Below are positions 1-13,918 of a stretch of 13,918 bases of DNA, in pieces. How positions within the stretch are numbered: position 1 is the stretch's first letter; each line of letters begins with the position of its first letter. The translations under genes were made by a program, and so were the position numbers. The DNA comes from a virus. Its lineage: Duplodnaviria; Heunggongvirae; Uroviricota; Caudoviricetes. The stretch lies in IMG/VR virus record IMGVR_UViG_2695420480_000007; one strand, written 5' to 3'. Under the pieces are notes generated by a model. The model saw only the letters and a list, made by a program, of their open reading frames with translations, had not been told where the DNA came from and searched no databases.

Positions 1-993
1 TTATGCTAGAGTTGAATATTCTCCATTTCCTCGGTCGGTGAGTGTTAATTCGCGGCCATTTTCTGTAAATGTAATGGCATCCAGCAGGCTTTTTCCTGTT
101 ACAGCTATACCATATCCAAGGTTATCAATCTTTGAACTGTCCTCAGATGATATTGGTATTTGTACAAGCATACCAACAACAAGGCCGTATTTGTTAATTA
201 TAGGGCCACCGCTATTCCCCCCCTTAACCCTAGCATTGAATAATAAAAAGTCTTGTGAATCTAAGTAAGAGTGACCAGAACCAACAATTCGCCCCTTTGA
301 CAGTCGGACAAACGAATTTATATGCGAAACGTCATATAACTTTAATGCATCAAATCCTGGAATGGGTGGAAATCCTATTGATAAAATTTCATCCAGTACC
401 GAGGCTTTGGTTGAGACCTTAAGTGGTTGAATATTATCTTCATTCGGAATGGTTGTGAAAACTAAAGCGATATCAATACGTTCATCGTTAGATACAAAGA
501 TTTTATGTATTGGTAAAGCCTCACCACCAGCTCTAAGTATCCTGATACTCTTCATGTCTTCAATAACATGTCTGGCTGTAAATATCGTGTGGTTATTCCC
601 AACAATAAAACTAGTACCAAGATCATGTGAACCATCACTTTTTTCAACAACAACAGGTAAAACGGAAGGACTAAGGCGGTCTATGATTGACTCAAATCCA
701 TCAGCTATAAAATCATACTTTCCATATTTCGCATCTGATTCATTGAAATTCGGTGCGAAATAGCAACGGTCAAAAAGAGTATGTCCTGAAGACAATTCCA
801 TTAAAATACCTTCAGTTGCTAGCTTTTCACAATTGCGTATTAACTTCATCATATCGAGAGTATTTTCCCACTCAGGTTTGAGACGGGTCAGGCTCTCAAT
901 TGTTTTTCTCTCTTTTACGTTATCGTTTTCCGGTTTGTCATAAAAATATTTCACTATTTCTGTTGGTGTTACATATGTTTTTTTTATAGTCAT
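1..993 (-). CDS. Trypsin-like (S1/chymotrypsin-fold) serine protease with an N-terminal domain of about 115 aa of unknown function
   Basis: Track ORF 1..1047(-) starts at a GTG with no SD; first in-frame ATG is at 993 (MTIKK...) with a weak GGG 7 nt upstream, so 993 is preferred and 1047 is the alternative. Ordered motifs TARHV (His), DIALV (Asp), GNSGGP (Ser) fit an S1 catalytic triad. Stop TAA at 1-3, so the gene is complete in the window. AT-rich. Confidence 0.7.
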   Translation of the reverse strand: MTIKKTYVTPTEIVKYFYDKPENDNVKERKTIESLTRLKPEWENTLDMMKLIRNCEKLATEGILMELSSGHTLFDRCYFAPNFNESDAKYGKYDFIADGFESIIDRLSPSVLPVVVEKSDGSHDLGTSFIVGNNHTIFTARHVIEDMKSIRILRAGGEALPIHKIFVSNDERIDIALVFTTIPNEDNIQPLKVSTKASVLDEILSIGFPPIPGFDALKLYDVSHINSFVRLSKGRIVGSGHSYLDSQDFLLFNARVKGGNSGGPIINKYGLVVGMLVQIPISSEDSSKIDNLGYGIAVTGKSLLDAITFTENGRELTLTDRGNGEYSTLA

Positions 994-1410
994 TTTTGTA
1001 CCCGCGATGACGTTATTCCATATATTTTTCTTTGTAGAAAATATCACTATTGCTGGTAAATGTTAAGTTCAGTGCTCGCACTAAAGCTGGATGATCAACG
1101 TCGCCCTCGTATGGAAATCAGGTAAGATTCATGTCTACTTGGGGTCTAGGGTAGACAGCATAAAAACGTACAATAGCGTTCGATTGGCTCTCACCCCCGC
1201 CTATAAACCATGAGGTTGATAGGGTAGTATCGTTAGGCAATAGTATACATGTAAGTATCCAACCTAATTGGTCTTGAGATTTCTAACTAACGTGTCGTTA
1301 TGTCCGCTTTTGGCACATAGCAGCCCCAGAGACAGTGGTGTAAAGTCATGGAGGGTCGGTGGGAGGATATTCAGTTTCATTCATGCCGAAATACGGTAAA
1401 ATCTATAATA

Positions 1411-2718: not shown

Positions 2719-2747
2719 TTGATCTTGAGTTTGGTTTTTAGTATAAG
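2719..2747 (+). promoter_or_regulatory. Putative sigma70 promoter for the XRE/ImmA operon
   Basis: -35 TTGATC (2719..2724), 17-nt spacer, -10 TATAAG (2742..2747), then SD AGGAGG (2762..2767) and ATG at 2774. Confidence 0.45.
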
Positions 2748-2773
2748 TGAGCATGGATTGTAGGAGGCGCAAC

Positions 2774-3124
2774 ATGGTAACTAGCTTTGGTAAGACTCTC
2801 AGAAAAATGAGAATAGACCGGGGTATGGTGCTCAAAAATATGGCTGATCTGTTAGGCGTTAGTTCGGCTTACTTATCCGCCATTGAATTAGGCAAAAGAG
2901 CTATACCGGACTCATTAGTAAATACGATTGCAACAACTTTTGAGCTTAGCGGACAAGACATCATCAATCTCAAGAAACAGGCAGAGATTTCTCAACCGTC
3001 CATTAAGGTTGATATGTCGGATGCAAATGAGCAGAACAAAGAACTAATGCTTGTTTTTGCTCGTAAATTTAAGGACCTGAGTCCAGAGCAACTCGATAAG
3101 CTTAATAAAATGTTAAAGGACTGA
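2774..3124 (+). CDS. XRE-family (Cro/CI-type) helix-turn-helix transcriptional regulator
   Basis: Track ORF 2747..3124; the likely start is ATG 2774, 6 nt after a perfect AGGAGG. HTH signature FGKTLRKMRIDRGMVLKNMADLLGVSSAYLSAIELGKR. Confidence 0.8.
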   Translation: MVTSFGKTLRKMRIDRGMVLKNMADLLGVSSAYLSAIELGKRAIPDSLVNTIATTFELSGQDIINLKKQAEISQPSIKVDMSDANEQNKELMLVFARKFKDLSPEQLDKLNKMLKD

Positions 3125-3127
3125 ATA

Positions 3128-3661
3128 ATGATTGCGAAACGAGAACTTGGCCATCGCGTTTCACCTCTCAGCACCAGCATGATTAAATCATACGCTCATC
3201 GTCTGAGAGACGTTCTTCAGATATCAAATCACACATATCTGAGACTGGATGTATTACTAGAAGGTCTTATGGCCTCAGAAAGCATTGAGCTAGAAATTGT
3301 TGAAGATCATGAACTGCCCAAACGCTATGCAGTGACTTATCCAGATAAGAACAAAATTGTTTTACAGCGATCTGTTTACGATGCAGTGTGCAATGGTGAG
3401 AACCATGCGAGATTCACTGTTGCGCATGAACTTGGTCATTTAGTCATGCATCGCAATCAAAGTATCTATGCACGTAATAAGACTAGTGGAGGGCATAAAA
3501 TCTATGAAGACAGCGAATGGCAAGCAGATGTTTTTGCAAGCCACTTCTTAATTGACTCAAGACTAGTTTTGCCCACAATGACTGTTGAAGATATAAGCAA
3601 AACATTTGGTGTCAGTCAACAAGCGGCTGAAACTTGGATGAGAAAAAATGCAAAAAGATAA
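3128..3661 (+). CDS. ImmA/IrrE-family (COG2856-like) zinc metallopeptidase
   Basis: 177-aa ORF starting 4 nt after the XRE stop (operonic). HEXXH motif in FTVAHELGHLVMH with downstream SEWQADVFASHFL, typical of ImmA/IrrE anti-repressor proteases. Confidence 0.8.
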   Translation: MIAKRELGHRVSPLSTSMIKSYAHRLRDVLQISNHTYLRLDVLLEGLMASESIELEIVEDHELPKRYAVTYPDKNKIVLQRSVYDAVCNGENHARFTVAHELGHLVMHRNQSIYARNKTSGGHKIYEDSEWQADVFASHFLIDSRLVLPTMTVEDISKTFGVSQQAAETWMRKNAKR

Positions 3662-3970: not shown

Positions 3971-4079
3971 CACTTCTGTTACGCGCACCACAGATAGAGT
4001 TTCAGCTAAAACTTTTGTTCATACCTAGGAGTCTGCTGACGAGTGGTTTGTTCACTAATAAACACGTAAAAACGGTAAC

Positions 4080-4165
4080 GGCTGGACATCATTCAATATT
4101 CGCACTATTGGAAGTTCACCAGCCAGCCACAGCACGTTCTTGCATACAACGTGCCTGCGGTTTTT
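4080..4165 (+). repeat. Copy 2 of the paralogous element of about 80 nt
   Basis: 85% ungapped identity to 1411..1490. Flanking stem GGCTGG (4080..4085) / CCAGCC (4119..4124) corresponds to GATGG/CCATC in copy 1, which is one compensatory A-T to C-G change. Confidence 0.5.
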
Positions 4166-4255: not shown

Positions 4256-5125
<870 letters not shown>

Positions 5126-5147
5126 GTCTTTAAGTGATAAGCATAAA

Positions 5148-5186
5148 CCGCAGCACGATCTTCTTGCATACGACGTGCTACGGTTT
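5148..5186 (+). repeat. Copy 3 (shortened) of the paralogous element, between the GIY-YIG stop and the invertase stop
   Basis: ccgcagcacgatcttcttgcatacgacgtgctacggttt aligns with the core of copies 1 and 2. It contains a potential 6-bp stem AGCACG/CGTGCT. A mirrored copy lies at 8275..8313 inside the inverted duplication. Confidence 0.45.
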
Positions 5187-5740
5187 CATTTATCTCCGAC
5201 CGGAAACTTCTTATACAGTGTCGATATACCAACATCATAGATGATCGCCACCTTCTGGCGAGGAACGCCTGATGCAATTAATCGCCCGGCCTGCGCCCAT
5301 TGTTCTGGTGTAAGTTTGGGACGACGTCCCCCAATTCGTCCCTGTGCGCGAGCAGCTTCCAGTCCAGCTTTTGTTCGTTCAACAATCAGTTCTCGTTCCA
5401 TTTCAGCCAAGGCACCCATCACATGAAAGAAAAAACGCCCCATCGGTGTGCTGGTATCAATAGCATCCGTCAGGCTGCGAAAATTAACGCCACGTTCGCG
5501 CAACTCCTCAACCAGAATGACCAGATGCCGCATACTACGCCCCAGCCGATCCAGCTTCCAGACAACCAGAGTGTCACCTGCCGATAATGTCCTGAGCAGT
5601 TTTTTCAGTCCCGGCCTTTCGGACTTTGTACCGCTTATCTTGTCTTCAAAAATAAGCTCGCATCCTGCACAGTTCAGCGCATTACGTTGTAGATCTGTGT
5701 TCTGGTCATTTGTTGATACGCGTACATAGCCAATAAGCAT
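5186..5740 (-). CDS. Serine recombinase, DNA invertase of the Pin/Gin/Hin/Cin (Din) family, copy 1
   Basis: Track ORF 5186..5776; the likely start is the internal Met giving MLIGYVRVSTNDQ… (184 aa, the Din-invertase length), with catalytic-Ser region YVRVST and a C-terminal HTH. 100% identical to copy 2. Confidence 0.85.
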   Translation of the reverse strand: MLIGYVRVSTNDQNTDLQRNALNCAGCELIFEDKISGTKSERPGLKKLLRTLSAGDTLVVWKLDRLGRSMRHLVILVEELRERGVNFRSLTDAIDTSTPMGRFFFHVMGALAEMERELIVERTKAGLEAARAQGRIGGRRPKLTPEQWAQAGRLIASGVPRQKVAIIYDVGISTLYKKFPVGDK

Positions 5741-5794
5741 GGTAGATCCCCCTGACAAAAGCAGGAATGATGCCATTTGCTCGTTATTTCTGCA

Positions 5795-5820
5795 TTTTCA
5801 TAAATGTTGGTTTGGGAGAA
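5795..5820. other. 26-bp Din-invertase crossover site (hix/gix-like), site 1
   Basis: TTTTCATAAATG-TT-GGTTTGGGAGAA; the inner half-site is the reverse complement of TTCTCCCAAACC. Exact inverted copy of site 2; the duplication boundary falls at its central dinucleotide. Confidence 0.5.
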
Positions 5821-6288
5821 GGTTCGGCATTACCCGTTGGTGTGCCTGTTCCGTGGCCTTCCGCCACTCCGCCAACAGGCTGGCTGAAATGCAACGGCGC
5901 GGCTTTCTCTGCTGAAGAATACCCGGAACTGGCAAAGGCTTATCCAACAAATAAATTACCTGATTTACGCGGTGAGTTTATTCGTGGCTGGGATGACGGG
6001 CGCGGTATTGATGCAGGACGTGTTTTATTGAGTATTCAGGCCGGAATGCTGGAAAAGCACCGTCATCCTGTTGTCGCCAACGATGGGTATGACTCAAAAG
6101 AGGAATGGGAACTGGCGACAATCTTCAGAAGAGCATATACGCAAGGCAGGGGGCTTGATGCTGCCGCTGCCGGAGGGAGTCTGATCCCATCACCGACACT
6201 TCATTCACGAGGGAGTATCGGTAATACTGGCGGGAGTGAAACCCGTCCACGAAATATTGCATTTAACTTTATCGTGAGGGCTGCATAA
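5809..6288 (+). CDS. Silent tail-fibre C-terminal variable cassette (Sv'), start-less in the current orientation
   Basis: Track ORF 5767..6288; its first 18 aa are read-through across the crossover site. The cassette (…GWLKCNGAAFSAEEYPELAKAYP…LPDLRGEFIRGWDDGRGID…) resembles Mu/P1/e14-type fibre C-terminal domains. Its stop overlaps the tfa' start (TAATG). Confidence 0.6.
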   Translation, partial: GLGEGSALPVGVPVPWPSATPPTGWLKCNGAAFSAEEYPELAKAYPTNKLPDLRGEFIRGWDDGRGIDAGRVLLSIQAGMLEKHRHPVVANDGYDSKEEWELATIFRRAYTQGRGLDAAAAGGSLIPSPTLHSRGSIGNTGGSETRPRNIAFNFIVRAA

Positions 6289-6890
6289 TGGATAACGCCG
6301 TATTAAATAGCGAGCTTATTGCCACGAAGGCGGGGAATATTACCGTCTATAACTATGATGGTGAAACTCGGGAATATATGTCTACTTCAAATGAATATCT
6401 TGCCATTGGTGTCGGTATCCCTGCATATTCCTGTTTAGATGCCCCTGGCACACATAAGGCGGGTTATGCTATCTGCCGTTCGATTGATTTAAACTCATGG
6501 GAATATGTGCCAGACCATCGCGGTGAAATCGTCTATAACACCGAAACGAGAGACGCCAAAGAAATCACAGCTCCGGGTGATTATCCTGAAAATACAACCA
6601 CTATCGCCCCGTTAACGCCATACGATAAATGGGATGGTAAGAAATGGGTGACCGATACTGAGGCACAGCATAGCGCCGCAGTAGAAGCGGCAGAAGCACA
6701 GCGCCAGTTGCTGATTGATGCTGCTATGGCTTCCATCAGTCTGATTCAGCTGAAATTGCAGGCCGGGCGGAAGCTGACGCAGGCAGAAATCACCCGCCTT
6801 AACGCTGTACTGGATTACATTGACGCGGTGACGGCAACAAATACCAGCACAGCGCCGGATGTCATCTGGCCTGAATTGCCGGAGGCGTAG
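6288..6890 (+). CDS. Tail fibre assembly protein (Tfa', 200 aa; U'-like)
   Basis: 200-aa ORF translationally coupled to Sv'; Tfa-like composition and C-terminus. Converges on and overlaps the opposite-strand tfa by 29 nt, as in Mu G and e14 P segments. Confidence 0.75.
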   Translation: MDNAVLNSELIATKAGNITVYNYDGETREYMSTSNEYLAIGVGIPAYSCLDAPGTHKAGYAICRSIDLNSWEYVPDHRGEIVYNTETRDAKEITAPGDYPENTTTIAPLTPYDKWDGKKWVTDTEAQHSAAVEAAEAQRQLLIDAAMASISLIQLKLQAGRKLTQAEITRLNAVLDYIDAVTATNTSTAPDVIWPELPEA

Positions 6891-7293
6891 GCCATTCAAT
6901 ATCTGGATCACTGGAGGTATCAATCAGTTCCAGTGCGTCCAGATAATCCAGCCACAGATTATATTGCGCCAGTTCCTCGCCTTTCAGACGACCAATAGCG
7001 GCTTTACCGGGCCATTGCTTACTGTTCATGTATTCGTTGGCCTGATTAACTAATCGCTGTTTATTTGATTCAGCGATTGTGATTAATTCTTCGCTGGTAA
7101 GTGGTGGCGCATCCTGCCATATTGGAAAACCATTTTTATCTGAACCAAGTATTTTACCATCAGGCCATGCAACTCCTGCGAACTCAGAATAAATAGTAAA
7201 GTTTATTTTCGTAGCGTTCTCAGGAATGGTTTGGCTATCTGGTGAAATATAAAACCCCGAATCAGAGGGATTAAAATAATATGTCTTTTCCAT
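6862..7293 (-). CDS. Tail fibre assembly protein (Tfa, 143 aa; U-like), copy A
   Basis: 143-aa ORF, identical to 8700..9131. ATG 2 nt after the stop of the upstream Sv cassette. Confidence 0.75.
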   Translation of the reverse strand: MEKTYYFNPSDSGFYISPDSQTIPENATKINFTIYSEFAGVAWPDGKILGSDKNGFPIWQDAPPLTSEELITIAESNKQRLVNQANEYMNSKQWPGKAAIGRLKGEELAQYNLWLDYLDALELIDTSSDPDIEWPTPPAIQAR

Positions 7294-7295
7294 AG

Positions 7296-7653
7296 TTAAT
7301 ACCCCACAGCCATCCAGTAAATTGAATTTGTTGTAGCAGAAGTGTAAGTAAATCTGATTTTAGTTCTGTTGGTACTTCCAATATCAAAGCCCACAGAACG
7401 GGCAGAAGGATCATTAGTTGAAATAAGAGCATTTACCGAACGACAAGCCGCAGGGAAAGCTACAGGTAATGTTATATCAACTGTTCCAACACTTCCTCCG
7501 GTTGGTGAGACAGAAAAACTCCCCCATTGAATAATCATCCCCCCAGGTAATTTCTGGTATCCATTGGCGGTCAATGAGTTACCAAAGCTGTTCATATCCG
7601 GTACCTGATTTTCTCCTGTCCCCACATTCCTTTTTGCTGCTTCTCCCAAACCA
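7296..7653 (-). CDS. Tail-fibre variable cassette Sv, duplicate copy not fused to a constant region (silent)
   Basis: Track ORF 7296..7694; identical to the C-terminal 118 aa of the stf gene at 9134..9781. Here the sequence upstream of the site is the invertase leader, not the fibre constant region. Confidence 0.6.
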
Positions 7654-7666
7654 ACATTTATGAAAA
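7641..7666. other. 26-bp Din-invertase crossover site, site 2
   Basis: TTCTCCCAAACC-AA-CATTTATGAAAA. The left half plus central AA (7641..7654) is identical to site 3 (9479..9492); the right half is identical to the outer half of site 1. Confidence 0.5.
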
Positions 7667-7720
7667 TGCAGAAATAACGAGCAAATGGCATCATTCCTGC
7701 TTTTGTCAGGGGGATCTACC

Positions 7721-8275
7721 ATGCTTATTGGCTATGTACGCGTATCAACAAATGACCAGAACACAGATCTACAACGTAATGCGCTGAACTGTGCAGGATG
7801 CGAGCTTATTTTTGAAGACAAGATAAGCGGTACAAAGTCCGAAAGGCCGGGACTGAAAAAACTGCTCAGGACATTATCGGCAGGTGACACTCTGGTTGTC
7901 TGGAAGCTGGATCGGCTGGGGCGTAGTATGCGGCATCTGGTCATTCTGGTTGAGGAGTTGCGCGAACGTGGCGTTAATTTTCGCAGCCTGACGGATGCTA
8001 TTGATACCAGCACACCGATGGGGCGTTTTTTCTTTCATGTGATGGGTGCCTTGGCTGAAATGGAACGAGAACTGATTGTTGAACGAACAAAAGCTGGACT
8101 GGAAGCTGCTCGCGCACAGGGACGAATTGGGGGACGTCGTCCCAAACTTACACCAGAACAATGGGCGCAGGCCGGGCGATTAATTGCATCAGGCGTTCCT
8201 CGCCAGAAGGTGGCGATCATCTATGATGTTGGTATATCGACACTGTATAAGAAGTTTCCGGTCGGAGATAAATGA
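7721..8275 (+). CDS. Serine recombinase, DNA invertase of the Pin/Gin/Hin/Cin family, copy 2
   Basis: Track ORF 7685..8275; ATG 7721 preceded by AGGGGG 8 nt upstream. Identical to copy 1 in inverted orientation. Confidence 0.85.
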   Translation: MLIGYVRVSTNDQNTDLQRNALNCAGCELIFEDKISGTKSERPGLKKLLRTLSAGDTLVVWKLDRLGRSMRHLVILVEELRERGVNFRSLTDAIDTSTPMGRFFFHVMGALAEMERELIVERTKAGLEAARAQGRIGGRRPKLTPEQWAQAGRLIASGVPRQKVAIIYDVGISTLYKKFPVGDK

Positions 8276-8313
8276 AACCGTAGCACGTCGTATGCAAGAA
8301 GATCGTGCTGCGG
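8275..8313 (-). repeat. Inverted copy of element copy 3
   Basis: Reverse complement of 5148..5186, lying within the 985-bp inverted duplication. Confidence 0.45.
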
Positions 8314-8335
8314 TTTATGCTTATCACTTAAAGAC

Positions 8336-8625
8336 TCAAAAATCAGGTGAGTAACGGACCGGGGACATAGCTCCTTTTTTTCTTAATTCATCTGGTATTT
8401 TTTTTCCAAGATAAAGATTTGCTATTTCAGGTGGGGCTTCTCGACCTTCAAAACCATAGCGAGAACTTTGTGTTGCCTCAAAGTCCGGATCCTCGTCCCA
8501 GTATTTCATCGTAGGGAAATTTTCACGTGTTGATTTGAGCCATTTATCAGCAATGAAAACCCCTCGAACGATCCCCCTTACAGTAGCAAGAATGACTTCT
8601 GCTTGGCTGGCGCGAGAGACATTAA
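8336..8625 (-). pseudogene. 3' fragment of the GIY-YIG gene (codons 180..274), inverted duplicate
   Basis: Reverse complement of 4836..5125, exact. Track ORF 8336..8761 is a chimera of this with antisense tfa sequence. Confidence 0.7.
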
Positions 8626-8728
8626 AATCACCCGCCTTAACGCTGTACTGGATTACATTGACGCGGTGACGGCAACAAATACCAGCACAGCGCCGGATGT
8701 CATCTGGCCTGAATTGCCGGAGGCGTAG
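8625..8728 (+). pseudogene. 3' fragment of tfa' (direct duplicate of 6787..6890)
   Basis: Identical to the end of the 200-aa tfa' gene but lacks its 5' 500 bp; begins at the non-site junction at 8625. Confidence 0.6.
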
Positions 8729-9131
8729 GCCATTCAATATCTGGATCACTGGAGGTATCAATCAGTTCCAGTGCGTCCAGATAATCCAGCCACAGATTAT
8801 ATTGCGCCAGTTCCTCGCCTTTCAGACGACCAATAGCGGCTTTACCGGGCCATTGCTTACTGTTCATGTATTCGTTGGCCTGATTAACTAATCGCTGTTT
8901 ATTTGATTCAGCGATTGTGATTAATTCTTCGCTGGTAAGTGGTGGCGCATCCTGCCATATTGGAAAACCATTTTTATCTGAACCAAGTATTTTACCATCA
9001 GGCCATGCAACTCCTGCGAACTCAGAATAAATAGTAAAGTTTATTTTCGTAGCGTTCTCAGGAATGGTTTGGCTATCTGGTGAAATATAAAACCCCGAAT
9101 CAGAGGGATTAAAATAATATGTCTTTTCCAT
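8700..9131 (-). CDS. Tail fibre assembly protein (Tfa, 143 aa), copy B, cognate to the expressed fibre
   Basis: Identical to 6862..7293; directly downstream of the stf gene. Confidence 0.8.
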
Positions 9132-9133
9132 AG

Positions 9134-9781
9134 TTAATACCCCACAGCCATCCAGTAAATTGAATTTGTTGTAGCAGAAGTGTAAGTAAATCTGATTTTA
9201 GTTCTGTTGGTACTTCCAATATCAAAGCCCACAGAACGGGCAGAAGGATCATTAGTTGAAATAAGAGCATTTACCGAACGACAAGCCGCAGGGAAAGCTA
9301 CAGGTAATGTTATATCAACTGTTCCAACACTTCCTCCGGTTGGTGAGACAGAAAAACTCCCCCATTGAATAATCATCCCCCCAGGTAATTTCTGGTATCC
9401 ATTGGCGGTCAATGAGTTACCAAAGCTGTTCATATCCGGTACCTGATTTTCTCCTGTCCCCACATTCCTTTTTGCTGCTTCTCCCAAACCAAGGTTTTCG
9501 AGAGCCGTTTTCACCGTGCCATCCGATTTGATATCGCCAAACGGATTCTTGCGGCTTAACAGCAGCGCGCGAAGTGCGGTAAGTAACTGGTCGTGCCGCC
9601 CCTTCTCCAGGCTGGCACCGGATGCCTCCACCACACTGCAAAGTTCCTCCTGCAACATGTCAAAGTAGTCATCATCCAGATCGGTGGCAGGCGTGCCGGT
9701 CTGGGGGTTACCACGGGTAAAACCGTTCTTACCCGCGCCGAACTTATCCTTCTGCGCGGTTTTCGTGTCTATACGATGCAT
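9134..9781 (-). CDS. Side tail fibre protein (about 97-aa constant N-terminal region fused to the Sv variable region), 215 aa
   Basis: ATG at 9781 with GGAG 7 nt upstream. N-terminus [21 protein letters not shown]… looks like a short e14/Mu-type fibre constant part; the constant/variable junction (…ENLGLGE|AAKRN…) coincides with crossover site 3. Confidence 0.75.
9479..9504. other. 26-bp Din-invertase crossover site inside the stf gene (best palindrome), site 3
   Basis: TTCTCCCAAACC-AA-GGTTTTCGAGAG, close to hixL as I recall it (TTCTTGAAAACC-AA-GGTTTTTGATAA, from memory). Sits at the fibre constant/variable boundary. Confidence 0.6.
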
Positions 9782-9784
9782 GGA

Positions 9785-9916
9785 TTACTCCGGATAACCG
9801 GGGTTTTCACCCGGTGCCGACCGCGCACGGCGCATCACCAGCCGACGGGCATCACGCATATGACGCTGACCAATCGTGACAAACGCCCGCCGGACACGGG
9901 CGCGGTTAAAGCGCAT
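9785..9916 (-). CDS. Small Arg-rich hypothetical protein (43 aa), possible late-operon remnant
   Basis: ATG overlaps the end of the upstream reading frame; stop is 3 nt before the stf ATG. Not in the ORF track (short). Confidence 0.25.
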   Translation of the reverse strand: MRFNRARVRRAFVTIGQRHMRDARRLVMRRARSAPGENPGYPE

Positions 9917-9935
9917 CTCCGCGGGCTGCTGAAAA

Positions 9936-10235
9936 TCAACGTGCAAAAAGGAAGTCGCCATTGCTGCCTCCGTGACTCTGCGTAAATTCGCCCAGTTCCG
10001 TACACTCCAGCAGCAGAAAGCGCCGCGCCCCGTTCAGATCGCGCTGACGTTTCACCCGGTACACACTGTCACCGCAGACCACCTCATAATCAGCGGTGAT
10101 CCCCCGGCGGTAGCGAATGGTGATGTAATGGGTGATGGCGTCCCCGGTCTGCGCGGTTTCCTGCCAGGTGGTGGCACTGGTCTGGATAACCTTCGCCCAT
10201 GTCCGGAACGTAACCGGGTACCCTGGCGACGCGCC
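9936..10235 (-). pseudogene. 5'-truncated phage head-tail joining/adaptor-like gene fragment
   Basis: A frame with no start codon reads …VTFRTWAKVIQTSATTWQETAQTGDAITHYITIRYRRGITADYEVVCGDSVYRVKRQRDLNGARRFLLLECTELGEF…, resembling the head-tail joining family pattern. GC-rich (about 60%). Confidence 0.4.
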
Positions 10236-10453
10236 TTACGCGTTAACCAGCCTTCTGCTTCCAGCCGTGCGATAGCCGTTCTGACGGTACTCATCCCCGC
10301 GCCAATCTGACGGGCAATGGTTTCAATTGATGGCCAGCACACACCTTCGTCATTACTGAAATCAGCCAGGCGGGCCATAATTGCCACGCTGGATAATTTC
10401 ATGCCTGACGCTGCGCAACCATCCCATACATAGCCGGTTAATTTAGTGCTCAT
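10052..10453 (-). pseudogene. Chimeric ORF: authentic N-terminal HTH domain (about 77 aa) of a phage replication/regulatory protein, then out-of-frame read-through
   Basis: [13 protein letters not shown]…SIETIARQIGAGMSTVRTAIARLEAEGWLTRKARRQG is a clean winged-HTH N-terminus. After RQG (about 10220..10228) the frame reads low-complexity Pro/Arg/Gly text while another frame carries the head-tail joining fragment. Confidence 0.5.
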
Positions 10454-10664
10454 GACCGACCTCTATTTCCCTGAATTTACGACGAAACTGTTCGAGCGGG
10501 CTGAAGCACTCATGCTCATAGCCTTCACGGAGGTAGATAACCCGTTGTGTTTCCGGCTCCCAACGAATGACTCTGACGGGCACTCCGTAGTGATCTTTGA
10601 ACCAGCGATTAACTTGTCGCAAAGGACTGTCTCCTTCTGCCGGTTGAAATCCCCCACAGCCCAC
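10443..10664 (-). CDS. Small hypothetical protein (73 aa)
   Basis: GTG start; its stop overlaps the start of the downstream HTH gene by 11 nt (operonic). No domain recognised with confidence. Confidence 0.4.
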
Positions 10665-11070: not shown

Positions 11071-11420
11071 TGGAGCCATACAGCCTCACACTCGATGAGG
11101 CCTGTCATTTTCTCAAGATATCCAGACCGACTGCCATTAACTGGATACGCACAGGGCGTCTTCAGGCAACACGCAAAGATCCCACTAAGAATAAATCTCC
11201 TTACCTCACAACACGACAAGCCTGCATTGCGGCTCTTCAGTCTCCGCTGCATACTGTCCAGGTGAGCGCGGGTGATGGCATAACAGAGGAAAGAAAATGT
11301 CACTCTTCCGCAGAGGTGAAATATGGTACGCCAGTTTCACATTGCCGAACGGTAAAAGATTTAAACAGTCTCTTGGAACAAAGGACAAAAGGCAGGCGAC
11401 AGAACTCCATGACAAGCTAA
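11070..11420 (+). CDS. xis: Excisionase (Xis), P22-like, 116 aa
   Basis: Internal start of track ORF 10986..11420; ATG 11070 preceded by GAGGTG. DNA-binding motif [26 protein letters not shown]. Overlaps int by 124 nt in another frame. Confidence 0.65.
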
Positions 11421-12460
11421 AGGCTGAAGCATGGCGGGTCAGCAAACTTGGTGAAATACCTGATATAACGTTCGAGGAAGCGTGTGTCAGGTGGCTTGAA
11501 GAGAAAGCACATAAAAAATCACTGGACGATGACAAAAGCCGGATCGGATTCTGGCTTCAACATTTCGCAGGAATGCAACTAAGAGACATTACTGAATCAA
11601 AAATTTATTCAGCAATGCAGAAAATGACGAACCGGCGTCATGAGGAAAACTGGAAACTCAGGGCAGAAGCATGCAGAAAAAAAGGGAAACCTGTTCCAGA
11701 ATACACGCCAAAACCAGCGTCCGTTGCAACGAAGGCTACGCATCTTTCATTTATAAAGGCCCTACTAAGAGCCGCAGAGCGTGAATGGAAAATGCTGGAT
11801 AAGGCACCAATTATTAAAGTGCCTCAACCAAAGAATAAACGGATCCGCTGGCTGGAGCCCCATGAAGCACAAAGGCTGATTGATGAATGTCCGGAGCCAT
11901 TAAAGTCTGTTGTTGAATTTGCACTGGCAACAGGCTTAAGACGCTCGAACATCATCAACCTTGAATGGCAACAAATAGATATGCAGCGCCGGGTGGCATG
12001 GATAAACCCGGAAGAGAGTAAATCAAACCGCGCAATTGGCGTTGCGCTGAATGATACTGCATGTCGCGTATTGAAAAAACAAATCGGGAATCATCACCGT
12101 TGGGTATTTGTGTACAAGGAAAGCTGTACCAAACCAGACGGAACGAAAGCGCCAACAGTAAGGAAGATGCGGTATGACGCAAACACAGCCTGGAAAGCGG
12201 CGCTGAGACGGGCTGGTATTGATGATTTCAGATTTCACGACTTGAGACACACCTGGGCAAGTTGGCTGGTTCAAGCCGGAGTCCCGTTGTCAGTGTTACA
12301 GGAAATGGGAGGCTGGGAGTCTATCGAAATGGTTCGTCGATATGCTCACCTTGCACCTAATCACCTTACCGAACACGCACGGCAAATAGACTCGATCCTG
12401 AACCCATCGGTCCCAAATTTGTCCCAGTCAAAAAATAAGGAAGGTACTAATGATGTGTAA
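11297..12460 (+). CDS. int: Tyrosine site-specific integrase, P22/thrW-targeting family
   Basis: 387-aa ORF with SD GAGGA. N-terminus [47 protein letters not shown] matches my recollection of P22 Int; C-terminal catalytic region has R…HDLRHT…Y. Ends 14 bp from the thrW 3' end. Confidence 0.9.
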
Positions 12461-12474
12461 CTTATTGATTTAAA

Positions 12475-12550
12475 TGGTGCCGATAATAGGAGTCGAACCT
12501 ACGACCTTCGCATTACGAATGCGCTGCTCTACCAACTGAGCTATATCGGC
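12475..12550 (-). tRNA. thrW: tRNA-Thr (anticodon CGU)
   Basis: Reverse complement gives a 76-nt tRNA: GCCGATATAGCTCAGTTGGTAGAGCAGCGCATTCGTAATGCG…GGTTCGACTCC…CACCA, with anticodon loop tTCGTaa, T-loop and encoded CCA. Adjacent to proA as in E. coli/Salmonella. Confidence 0.9.
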
Positions 12551-12664: not shown

Positions 12665-13918
12665 TTACGCACGAATGGTGTAATCACCAATGCCGATCCA
12701 CTTGTAAGTGGTCAGTGCTTCCAGCCCCATTGGGCCACGCGCGTGGAGTTTTTGTGTGCTTACCGCCACTTCCGCACCCAGACCAAACTGGCCGCCGTCG
12801 GTAAAACGCGTAGAGGCGTTAACGTAAACAGCGGACGAATCCACTTCGTTAACAAAACGCTGGGCGTTGCGCATATCGCGGGTCAGGATCGCATCGGAGT
12901 GTTGTGTGCCGTGTTCACGAATATGGGCGATGGCATCGTCAAGATCGCTGACGATTTTGACGTTCAAATCTAATGACAGAAACTCATCGTCATACTCTTC
13001 GGCTTTAACAGCAACCACCTTCGCAGGGCCTGCCTGCAACTGCGCCAGTGCAGCTGCATCTGCGTGTAATGTCACGCCGCTTTCCGCCATTTGTTTGCTT
13101 AATGCGGGCAGGAAGCTATCGGCGATGTTTTTATTCACCAGCAACGTTTCAACCGTATTACATGTGCTCGGACGCTGAGTTTTCGCGTTGACGATCACTT
13201 TTAATGCTTCAGCGATCTCTACACTTTCATCAACGTAAATATGGCATACGCCTATACCACCTGTGATCACCGGGATTGTCGACTGTTCACGGCACAGTTT
13301 ATGCAAACCAGCGCCACCACGCGGGATCAGCATGTCGATGTATTTATCCATACGCAGCATTTCACTGACCAGCGCACGGTCAGGATTATCAATCGCCTGC
13401 ACGGCACCCGCCGGTAAGCCGCAGGATTTCAGGGCGTCCTGAATCACCGCCACCGTTGCAGCGTTAGTGCGACACGTTTCTTTGCCACCGCGCAGGATCA
13501 CCGCATTACCGGTTTTCAGGCACAGCGAAGCGACATCAACCGTCACGTTCGGGCGCGCTTCATAAATCACGCCAATAACCCCCAGCGGTACGCGACGACG
13601 CTCAAGACGCAGGCCGCTGTCCAGTACGCCGCCATCGATTACCTGCCCCACCGGATCGGCGAGGTTGCACACCTGACGTACATCGTCGGCAATGCCTTTC
13701 AGCCGTGCGGGCGTCAGTGCCAGACGGTCAAGCATCGCTTCGCTAAGGCCATTGGCTCGCGCGTCAGCAACATCCTGGGCGTTAGCGTTGAGGATGATTT
13801 CGCTTTGTGCTTCCAGTTCATCGGCGATTTTTTCCAGCACGCGATTTTTTTCGCGGCTGGAGAGTTGCGCTAATTTATACGAGGCTTGCTTCGCGGCAAT
13901 GCCCATTTGTTCCAGCAT
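12665..13918 (-). CDS. proA: Gamma-glutamyl phosphate reductase (glutamate-5-semialdehyde dehydrogenase)
   Basis: 417-aa ORF matching E. coli ProA as I recall it ([21 protein letters not shown]…); the start codon is the last three bases of the window. Confidence 0.95.

Follow-up and report, generated by a model that had tools for sequence, protein, structure and literature searches.

A prophage-borne winged-helix/HtrA-like serine protease as a candidate single-gene phage-defence protein

We analysed a 13,918-bp stretch of DNA from a Caudoviricetes virus (IMG/VR record IMGVR_UViG_2695420480_000007; hereafter the window), whose first 993 nucleotides encode, on the minus strand, a 330-residue serine protease that an original prediction, made from the bare sequence, had proposed as a possible abortive-infection or effector protein. 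The window begins exactly at the stop codon of this gene, and the 3′ flank was taken from Escherichia coli A22. The gene and its immediate surroundings, in window coordinates, contain the following features.

1-993, minus strand: complete protease coding sequence of 330 aa (ATG at 991-993, stop at 1-3), made up of a winged helix, a linker and an HtrA-like S1C serine protease
748-993, minus strand: divergent winged-helix domain, residues 1-82 (helices 10-17, 32-36 and 48-60; strands 65-68 and 77-80)
658-747, minus strand: helical linker, residues 83-112, joining the winged helix to the protease and carrying the most conserved N-terminal motif, YGxYDF...GF; G99 and F100 are invariant
58-657, minus strand: HtrA/DegS-like chymotrypsin-fold protease domain, residues 113-312, with the catalytic triad inside it and no PDZ domain after it
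313-360, minus strand: loop between the two beta-barrels, residues 212-227 (GFPPIPGFD...INS)
4-57, minus strand: variable C-terminal tail, residues 313-330, including a confidently modelled beta-hairpin (strands 319-322 and 325-327) where PDZ domains would be
994-1321, minus strand: 5′ non-coding part of the protease cassette, with open reading frames (ORFs) of at most 40 aa, none conserved outside E. coli
1038-1066, minus strand: sigma-70-like promoter (TTAACA, 17 nt, TATTTT, with TG upstream of the latter)
about 1633-1662, both directions: bidirectional intrinsic terminator, AAAAAAAAGCCCGCATAAGCGGGCTTTTTT (A-tract, GC hairpin, T-tract), directly after the Bro-N stop codon
1679-2440, minus strand: Bro-N gene (match to PHROG anti-repressor (Ant) families, E = 4e-17)

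The ORF at 1-993 is a real gene, as it gives a significant Pfam match, has 78 database homologues and is annotated identically in RefSeq. An identical ORF in E. coli A22 is labelled 'S1 family peptidase' (WP_000152898.1), and the exact protein sequence occurs on 497 contigs, on every one of them under a generic name. The Pfam match is to Trypsin_2 (PF13365) over residues 126-275 (E = 1.5e-17; 65.1 bits against a cut-off of 27.6). In an alignment of 39 sequences reaching down to 27% identity, His142, Asp174 and Ser261, the last within GGNSGGP, are invariant; their codons, checked by eye, lie at 568-570, 472-474 and 211-213, respectively. A Pfam score over the gathering threshold together with an ordered His-Asp-Ser triad places the protein among the clan PA(S) chymotrypsin-fold peptidases. 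The S1 protease with an ordered triad and a GNSGGP motif that was read from the sequence at the outset is thus borne out, and the alignment removes the concern that the triad might prove absent. The N-terminus is hydrophilic, and the highest mean Kyte-Doolittle hydropathy over 19 residues is 1.26, located in the protease core. Judged by hydropathy alone, the 330-residue protein contains no signal peptide or membrane segment, as had been claimed, and on these grounds the protease is predicted to be cytoplasmic.

Modelling of the full-length protein with AlphaFold2 and the family alignment gave a confident structure (predicted local distance difference test score, pLDDT, 86.8; predicted template modelling score, pTM, 0.86), and folds were compared against PDB libraries. 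The N-terminal ~115 residues had initially been described as a single unassigned domain. The absence of any sequence-family assignment holds, with residues 1-112 matching nothing in PADLOC, NCBIfam or Pfam, libraries that match the protease domain only; the region is not, however, one unknown domain, as it divides into a winged helix (residues 1-82) and a helical linker (residues 83-112). The former has the H1-(S1)-H2-H3-S2-wing-S3 topology and resembles known winged helices in structure, among them the Cdc6/ORC winged-helix domain, the C-terminal winged helices of Stn1 and RPA32, PadR, MarR and the winged helix of BrxC, all at ~10% identity. No winged-helix family of Pfam, NCBIfam or PADLOC matches the domain at the sequence level.

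Many of the top winged-helix fold matches are protein-binding rather than DNA-binding. Regulators of the MarR, PadR and ArsR type carry a basic recognition helix, whereas the N-terminal region of the protease (residues 1-112) ranges from net acidic to neutral; its winged-helix domain has a mean net charge of -1.8 and lacks conserved basic residues in the recognition-helix/wing stretch, a charge pattern that would favour binding of a protein or ligand over DNA. The domain is also among the least conserved parts of the family: measured against the query, the winged helix has a median identity of 24% and the C-terminal segment (residues 300-330) one of 16%, compared with 42% in the linker and 38-58% in the barrels of the protease, the C-terminal barrel reaching 58%. 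The most variable parts of the family are therefore the winged helix and the C-terminal tail, a sensor-like pattern. Loop 212-227 shows a different combination of properties, as it belongs to the better conserved stretches of the family and yet is the sole region that the model leaves disordered (pLDDT 39-47). This loop is a candidate regulatory, gating, activation or autoprocessing element.

We compared the protease domain with known proteases of similar fold. Its closest solved structures are DegS, DegP, Deg1 and Rv0983, at ~20% identity, and it shares the protease-domain fold of the HtrA group (MEROPS S1C: DegP, DegQ, DegS, plant Deg1 and Mycobacterium tuberculosis Rv0983). The HtrA enzymes differ from it in several respects. 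The window protease is without a signal peptide, membrane anchor or C-terminal PDZ domain, and has instead a winged helix and linker at its N-terminus and a short hairpin at its C-terminus; its gene belongs to the accessory, mobile part of the genome, whereas HtrA is core. No PDZ domain matched in Pfam at E values up to 1, and only ~18 residues, modelled as the beta-hairpin, extend beyond the protease domain. Against the HtrA families of NCBIfam the protein scores 20-46 bits, where the cut-offs are 250-800: the best match, TIGR02037, reaches 46 bits against 416, DegS 34 against 408-423 and DegP 20.5 against 720. Because these scores fall so far under the cut-offs, the protein is a distant relative of the housekeeping HtrA proteases and not an orthologue. 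A signal peptide and orthology to a periplasmic DegP/HtrA-type protease would have spoken against the original prediction, and neither DegP, DegQ nor DegS orthology, nor a PDZ domain, nor a signal peptide was found.

The gene forms part of a compact cassette. Comparison with other E. coli genomes delimited 1,726 bp, comprising 405 bp past the stop codon, the gene and 328 bp before the start codon (window 1-1321), and this cassette is 99.4-99.5% identical between two unrelated prophage contexts, the thrW island and the Z/fun locus of P2. Its coordinates in E. coli A22 (NZ_CP028753.1) are 3544054-3545779. The promoter-like block (TTAACATTTAC...GGTGATATTTT) is nearly invariant in relatives whose DNA is just ~79-85% identical; in more distant relatives, homology ends ~50-90 bp past the stop and ~75-110 bp before the start. 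We searched the cassette for a conserved small ORF or antitoxin and found none, the ORFs in the flanks being all of 56 aa or less.

Upstream of the protease, on the same strand and 685 bp away, lies the Bro-N gene. The bidirectional terminator that had been noticed between the two is strongly supported by folding: the 71 nt around it fold at -34.1 kcal/mol (z = -5.8), a value equalled by none of 200 shuffles. It ends the Bro-N gene and insulates the protease cassette. A consensus terminator scan of positions 1-2800 found no terminator, a negative that we set aside because folding gave so strong a hairpin. Across 41 E. coli copies of the protease gene, Bro-N is adjacent in 11, while ~15 diverge at window position 1525 and ~14 at 1321; Bro-N is also present without the protease in other E. 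coli genomes. Nor did the 40 loci from several phyla that we compared share a conserved neighbour, no neighbour family occurring in more than 4 of them. The terminator, the gene's own promoter-like block, the breakpoints at 1321 and 1525, the occurrence of each gene without the other and the lack of a conserved neighbour together support the transcriptional and evolutionary independence of the protease from Bro-N, and with it the view of the gene as an independent unit that the original prediction had drawn from the terminator.

Two candidate partners were considered and abandoned. A functional link between the protease and Bro-N was rejected on account of the context breakpoints. A retron-like or regulatory non-coding RNA partner was dropped because Rfam gave nothing over threshold in the 685-bp spacer, where weak leader- or terminator-like matches fell on the hairpin and a sub-threshold match to a tmRNA 3′ end was seen.

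A word-indexed search recovered 78 relatives, nearly all of 314-362 aa and with the same two-domain layout. We then compared a profile of the N-terminal domain with 1.84 billion representative proteins, which returned 150 proteins at E ≤ 0.001; the large majority are 300-370 aa long with the domain at or near the N-terminus, and the shorter ones are consistent with fragments. Because its matches are confined to this architecture of ~330 aa, the winged helix is restricted to the protease family and is not a module exchanged between other proteins. The family has members in Escherichia, Klebsiella, Pseudomonas, Nitrospina, Opitutia, many Bacteroidota, Nostoc and Microcoleus, and thus in Pseudomonadota, Bacteroidota, Cyanobacteria, Nitrospinota and Verrucomicrobiota. 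The Klebsiella copies (87% identity) reside on IncF plasmids. In E. coli the gene is rare and horizontally mobile: it is present in 41 of 5,426 complete genomes (0.76%), and all copies are at least 99% identical. The protein aligns from end to end with PHROG 18002, annotated 'unknown function' (E = 7.5e-234; residues 1-330 against profile positions 1-330 of 330). The gene is present in IMG/VR prophage contigs and absent, save for one weak partial match, from 50,697 deposited phage genomes.

Where the gene sits provides the main argument for its function. In this window and in E. coli A22 it lies within the thrW island, where it takes up the cargo end of what remains of a Mu/e14-like prophage. 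The cargo is AT-rich, in keeping with the prophage setting proposed at the outset; G+C is 0.35-0.39 for the protease gene and 0.51-0.53 at the proA end of the window. From the protease inwards, the cargo runs through the Bro-N/Ant-like gene, a helix-turn-helix (HTH) gene with an ImmA/IrrE gene (CapH/CapP-like), the defence gene PD-T4-3, the pin invertase gene and tail-fibre cassettes, so that PD-T4-3 (PADLOC E = 2.7e-140) lies three genes, or ~3.3 kb, from the protease in the same array. A variant of the thrW island carries the protease near DUF4236, DUF2971 and reverse transcriptase genes.

A second slot is found in P2-like prophages. In the three that we inspected, from E. coli 120899, 789 and ETEC4090 (enterotoxigenic/avian pathogenic E. 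coli), the gene lies between the tail-fibre assembly gene G and the tail-sheath gene FI, and at least 14 E. coli genomes share this P2-context breakpoint (1321). In the phage P2 reference, fun(Z) stands directly before FI and is annotated 'blocks growth of T5; nonessential; lysogenic conversion'; it holds the exact G-FI position that the protease occupies in P2-like prophages. The P2 defence hotspots listed in PMC13586616 include the Z/fun locus and one inside the tail genes. The window copy itself occupies the other slot, that of thrW-island prophage cargo.

More distant relatives were found in comparable company. A Pseudomonas relative lies between HEPN_AbiU2 and DUF4238 in a P4-like satellite with DUF927 primase and Toprim genes, and DUF4238 by itself protects against T7 (PMC9122126). 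One relative adjoins a reverse transcriptase and a large SNF2 helicase, another adjoins TPR-CHAT, kinase and SMC-like ATPase genes, and a further one lies in a P2-like prophage that also carries GAPS4 ~5 kb away. The conservation of gene neighbourhoods, proposed originally as a check, thus gave a divided answer: several homologues have defence-type settings, whereas some lie among housekeeping genes, and the 40 loci yielded no conserved partner.

In three independent Bacteroidota lineages, a HipA-like kinase gene lies one or two genes upstream of the protease homologue. These HipA-linked loci span 4372-7008 of locus L068, 13-1797 of L037, 4133-6906 of L030 and 3703-6882 of L033. The gap between kinase and protease is 16 bp in L068/L037; ahead of the kinase stands an HTH gene in L068, a Bacteroidales element, and a small unannotated ORF of 102 aa in L030. 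Between the three lineages, the HipA-like kinases are 25-28% and the proteases 31-50% identical. The arrangement may represent a three-gene variant or the clustering of toxin-antitoxin and defence genes in islands.

Comparison with proteases of established defence systems revealed both a likeness and a marked difference. It is established that variants of Hachiman, AVAST and Lamassu include trypsin-like proteases, which oligomerisation activates (PMC12799240), and activation by oligomerisation is a plausible property of the window protease by analogy. Like the protease-HamA of HamMAB, the trypsin-MBL (metallo-beta-lactamase) modules of Avs2 and Avs1a, Lamassu-protease and retron type XI, it combines a cytoplasmic trypsin-like domain with a putative sensing or assembly module; in contrast to them it has no reverse transcriptase, HamA, STAND or Lamassu domain and stands alone. 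The best PADLOC matches cover the protease domain only: RT-Protease_XI (E = 5e-13), LmuA (E = 3e-10) and HamA (E = 2e-7). An identity as a retron type XI RT-protease was considered and rejected, as the match spans profile positions 340-486 of 506, which is the protease part, the N-terminus is a winged helix and Rfam detected no retron RNA. No co-encoded pro-effector, whether an MBL-fold nuclease, an alpha/beta-hydrolase, Pepco or EACC1, was found in the 1.7-kb cassette.

Closer parallels in genetic organisation are Lit of prophage e14 and Fun(Z) of phage P2, both of which, like the window protease, are single-gene prophage cargo in the same kind of slot. Lit, also a protease, stays latent until a phage peptide triggers it to cleave EF-Tu. 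It differs from the window protease in being a zinc metalloprotease without homology to it, and Fun(Z), which is transcribed in antisense orientation relative to the F operon, likewise has no sequence relationship to it.

We therefore favour, with a probability of about 0.5, the reading that the gene encodes a self-contained cytoplasmic sensor-protease, carried as a single-gene cassette among the cargo of prophages and satellites, in slots set aside for anti-phage genes, and regard it as a good candidate for a single-gene phage-defence protein. An abortive-infection or effector role, as first suggested, is plausible from location: the P2 Z/fun slot, the hotspot in a P4-like satellite and the presence of PD-T4-3 in the same array. 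Such hotspot locations reasonably strengthen a defensive interpretation, and the oligomerisation-activated proteases of Hachiman, AVAST and Lamassu, together with Lit, serve as precedents that make a sensor-protease plausible. We infer the function, that of an autoinhibited single-gene sensor-protease for phage exclusion, from the location of the gene and the architecture of the protein.

In such a scheme, the HtrA-like protease would be latent in uninfected cells, as HtrA biology and the lack of an antitoxin or inhibitor partner gene would lead one to expect. The variable winged helix, perhaps with the C-terminal hairpin, would hold the regulatory place of the PDZ domain and recognise a cue of infection, for which a phage protein is the likeliest candidate, ahead of DNA. 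Binding, or oligomerisation induced by it, would order the flexible loop 212-227 and the active site, and the active protease would then cut a host or phage protein needed for phage growth, excluding the competing phage in the manner of Lit or Fun/Z. The latent state, the kind of trigger, the substrate and the protection against phages itself are all inferred parts of this scheme. A narrower version, which we put forward as a tentative possibility, is that of a new class of single-polypeptide abortive-infection or exclusion protease, in which the winged helix directly recognises a phage protein and switches on the HtrA-like domain, with the result that the cell is killed or arrested or the phage disabled.

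Several observations weigh against a defensive sensor-protease. No PADLOC model covers the whole protein, and the known defence trypsin-like proteases act on a co-encoded pro-effector such as an MBL nuclease, of which there is none beside this one. The copies in Nitrospina watsonii and Algibacter are flanked by ordinary metabolic genes with no recognisable mobile element, and many of 149 immediate neighbours are ordinary metabolic, ribosomal or housekeeping genes. The winged helix could bind nucleic acid despite its charge, and autoinhibition by this domain or by the C-terminal tail is a guess. Finally, the papers searched, on P2/P4 hotspots, PD systems, DefensePredictor, a domain-centric screen, metagenomic selections and protease-effectors, contain no tested homologue.

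Alternative explanations account for part of the same evidence. Hotspot slots carry non-defence morons too, and an accessory gene of this type might serve lysogenic conversion, modulate a host regulator, or govern the life cycle of its own element by cutting a DNA-bound repressor that the winged helix recognises; such a role would suit a family carried by prophages, a satellite and IncF plasmids, represented by a PHROG of 'unknown function' and equipped with a fold compatible with DNA or repressor binding. We nevertheless consider it unlikely, given the acidic-to-neutral N-terminal region without conserved basic recognition-helix or wing residues, and a range of unrelated carriers (the Mu/e14-like remnant, P2-like prophages, the P4-like satellite, plasmids and bare chromosomes) that argues against an element-specific target; the near-absence of the gene from sequenced phage genomes points the same way. 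Because loci that hold defence genes hold anti-defence genes as well, and because the sensor-like domain is variable, the protease could also be a weapon that degrades host defence or rival-element proteins to the benefit of its carrier. This we judge improbable: the gene also occupies chromosomal sites without a recognisable mobile element, and scans of Pfam, PADLOC, NCBIfam and PHROG returned no match to known anti-defence families.

Membership of a multi-gene system, with Bro-N, HTH and ImmA/IrrE here or with an HTH protein and a HipA-like kinase in Bacteroidota, could explain why Bro-N lies upstream on the same strand and why the kinase recurs nearby in three independent lineages, at a 16-bp gap in L068/L037. 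In E. coli this idea is contradicted by the strong terminator and 685 bp of spacer and by breakpoints that leave Bro-N adjacent in just 11 of 41 copies; the occurrence of Bro-N without the protease, and the absence of any neighbour family from all but 4 or fewer of the 40 loci, add to the case. It is accordingly very improbable as a general account, and possible for the HipA-linked Bacteroidota clade. We give almost no weight to an ordinary HtrA/DegP-type quality-control protease that reached the island by chance. DegS, DegP, Deg1 and Rv0983 are indeed the nearest structures, but ~20% identity, NCBIfam scores far beneath the cut-offs (20-46 bits against 250-800), the lack of a signal peptide, anchor or PDZ domain, and a mobile distribution in 0.76% of E. 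coli genomes speak against a housekeeping enzyme. The self-contained sensor-protease is the reading that we retain.

The remainder of the window comprises further cargo, repeats and the integration site. Its features are as follows.

2747-3124 and 3128-3661, plus strand: HTH protein and ImmA/IrrE metallopeptidase, CapH/CapP-like (E = 6e-11 and 5e-15), upstream of PD-T4-3 on the same strand
4301-5125, plus strand: full-length PD-T4-3 (LEM-3-like GIY-YIG) defence protein
10052-10453, minus strand: ORF of 133 aa with a helix-turn-helix or replication-initiator look, by eye only, in the G+C-rich segment 9500-10500
11297-12460, plus strand: tyrosine integrase, adjoining thrW and proA
12475-12550, minus strand: tRNA-Thr(CGU) (thrW)
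12665-13918, minus strand: proA

The position of the tyrosine integrase beside thrW and proA places the entire cargo array in the thrW integration island, the CP4-6 position of E. coli K-12. This island also contains, in E. coli A22, a Mu-like prophage that is nearly complete and the vat autotransporter. The HTH and ImmA/IrrE proteins may form a regulatory pair that responds to DNA damage and controls PD-T4-3 or the divergent Bro-N gene, and Bro-N, being present without the protease in other genomes, belongs with this module rather than with the protease. The segment at 9500-10500 is G+C-rich (0.57-0.58) and unlike the AT-rich cargo to its left in composition.

Repeats of two kinds mark the array. 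A 98-nt direct repeat, 82% identical, occurs at 1396-1493 and 4066-4163, and its 28-nt core recurs at 5150-5177, just past the pin stop codon, such that each cargo module is bounded by a copy. The first copy leads into GCGGGTTCAACTCCCGCCAGCTCCACCA (1487-1514), which resembles a tmRNA 3′ end (Rfam RF00023 positions 347-363; E = 0.0037, below threshold) and which we take to match E. coli ssrA. As the repeats bound cargo modules, and the contexts of other copies break at 1321 and 1525, their arrangement suggests att-like sites or recombination scars that mediate cassette swapping. Separately, a perfect 986-nt inverted repeat (4836-5821 and 7640-8625) duplicates the pin invertase and the 3′ end of PD-T4-3 and creates a chimeric ORF at 8336-8761, and a perfect 300-nt direct repeat of tail-fibre-assembly sequence lies at 6787-7086 and 8625-8924. 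None of the 5,426 complete E. coli genomes contains this arrangement, the best coverage being 61%; either the invertase was involved in a recent rearrangement or the assembly is at fault.

Protease-based bacterial immunity has so far been mainly a two-part affair, in which a sensor-fused protease cleaves a pro-effector such as a gasdermin or an MBL nuclease. What is new here is a defence-type trypsin-like protease with a family-specific partner domain, now assigned to the winged-helix fold, and without an effector partner. Were the protein not defensive, it would still be a clear example of a winged helix standing in for the PDZ regulator in an HtrA-like protease of the cytoplasm. If the proposed role is correct, a one-gene winged-helix/HtrA-like protease in validated defence hotspots would constitute a minimal sensor-effector that works without a pro-effector, antitoxin or NTPase as partner, a functional counterpart of Lit built on a serine protease and spread over at least five bacterial phyla. 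Its trigger and substrate would be accessible to simple genetics, through phage escape mutants and N-terminomics. PHROG 18002 would gain a function, and a compact 1.7-kb module with its own promoter-like element would join the prophage-borne exclusion genes.

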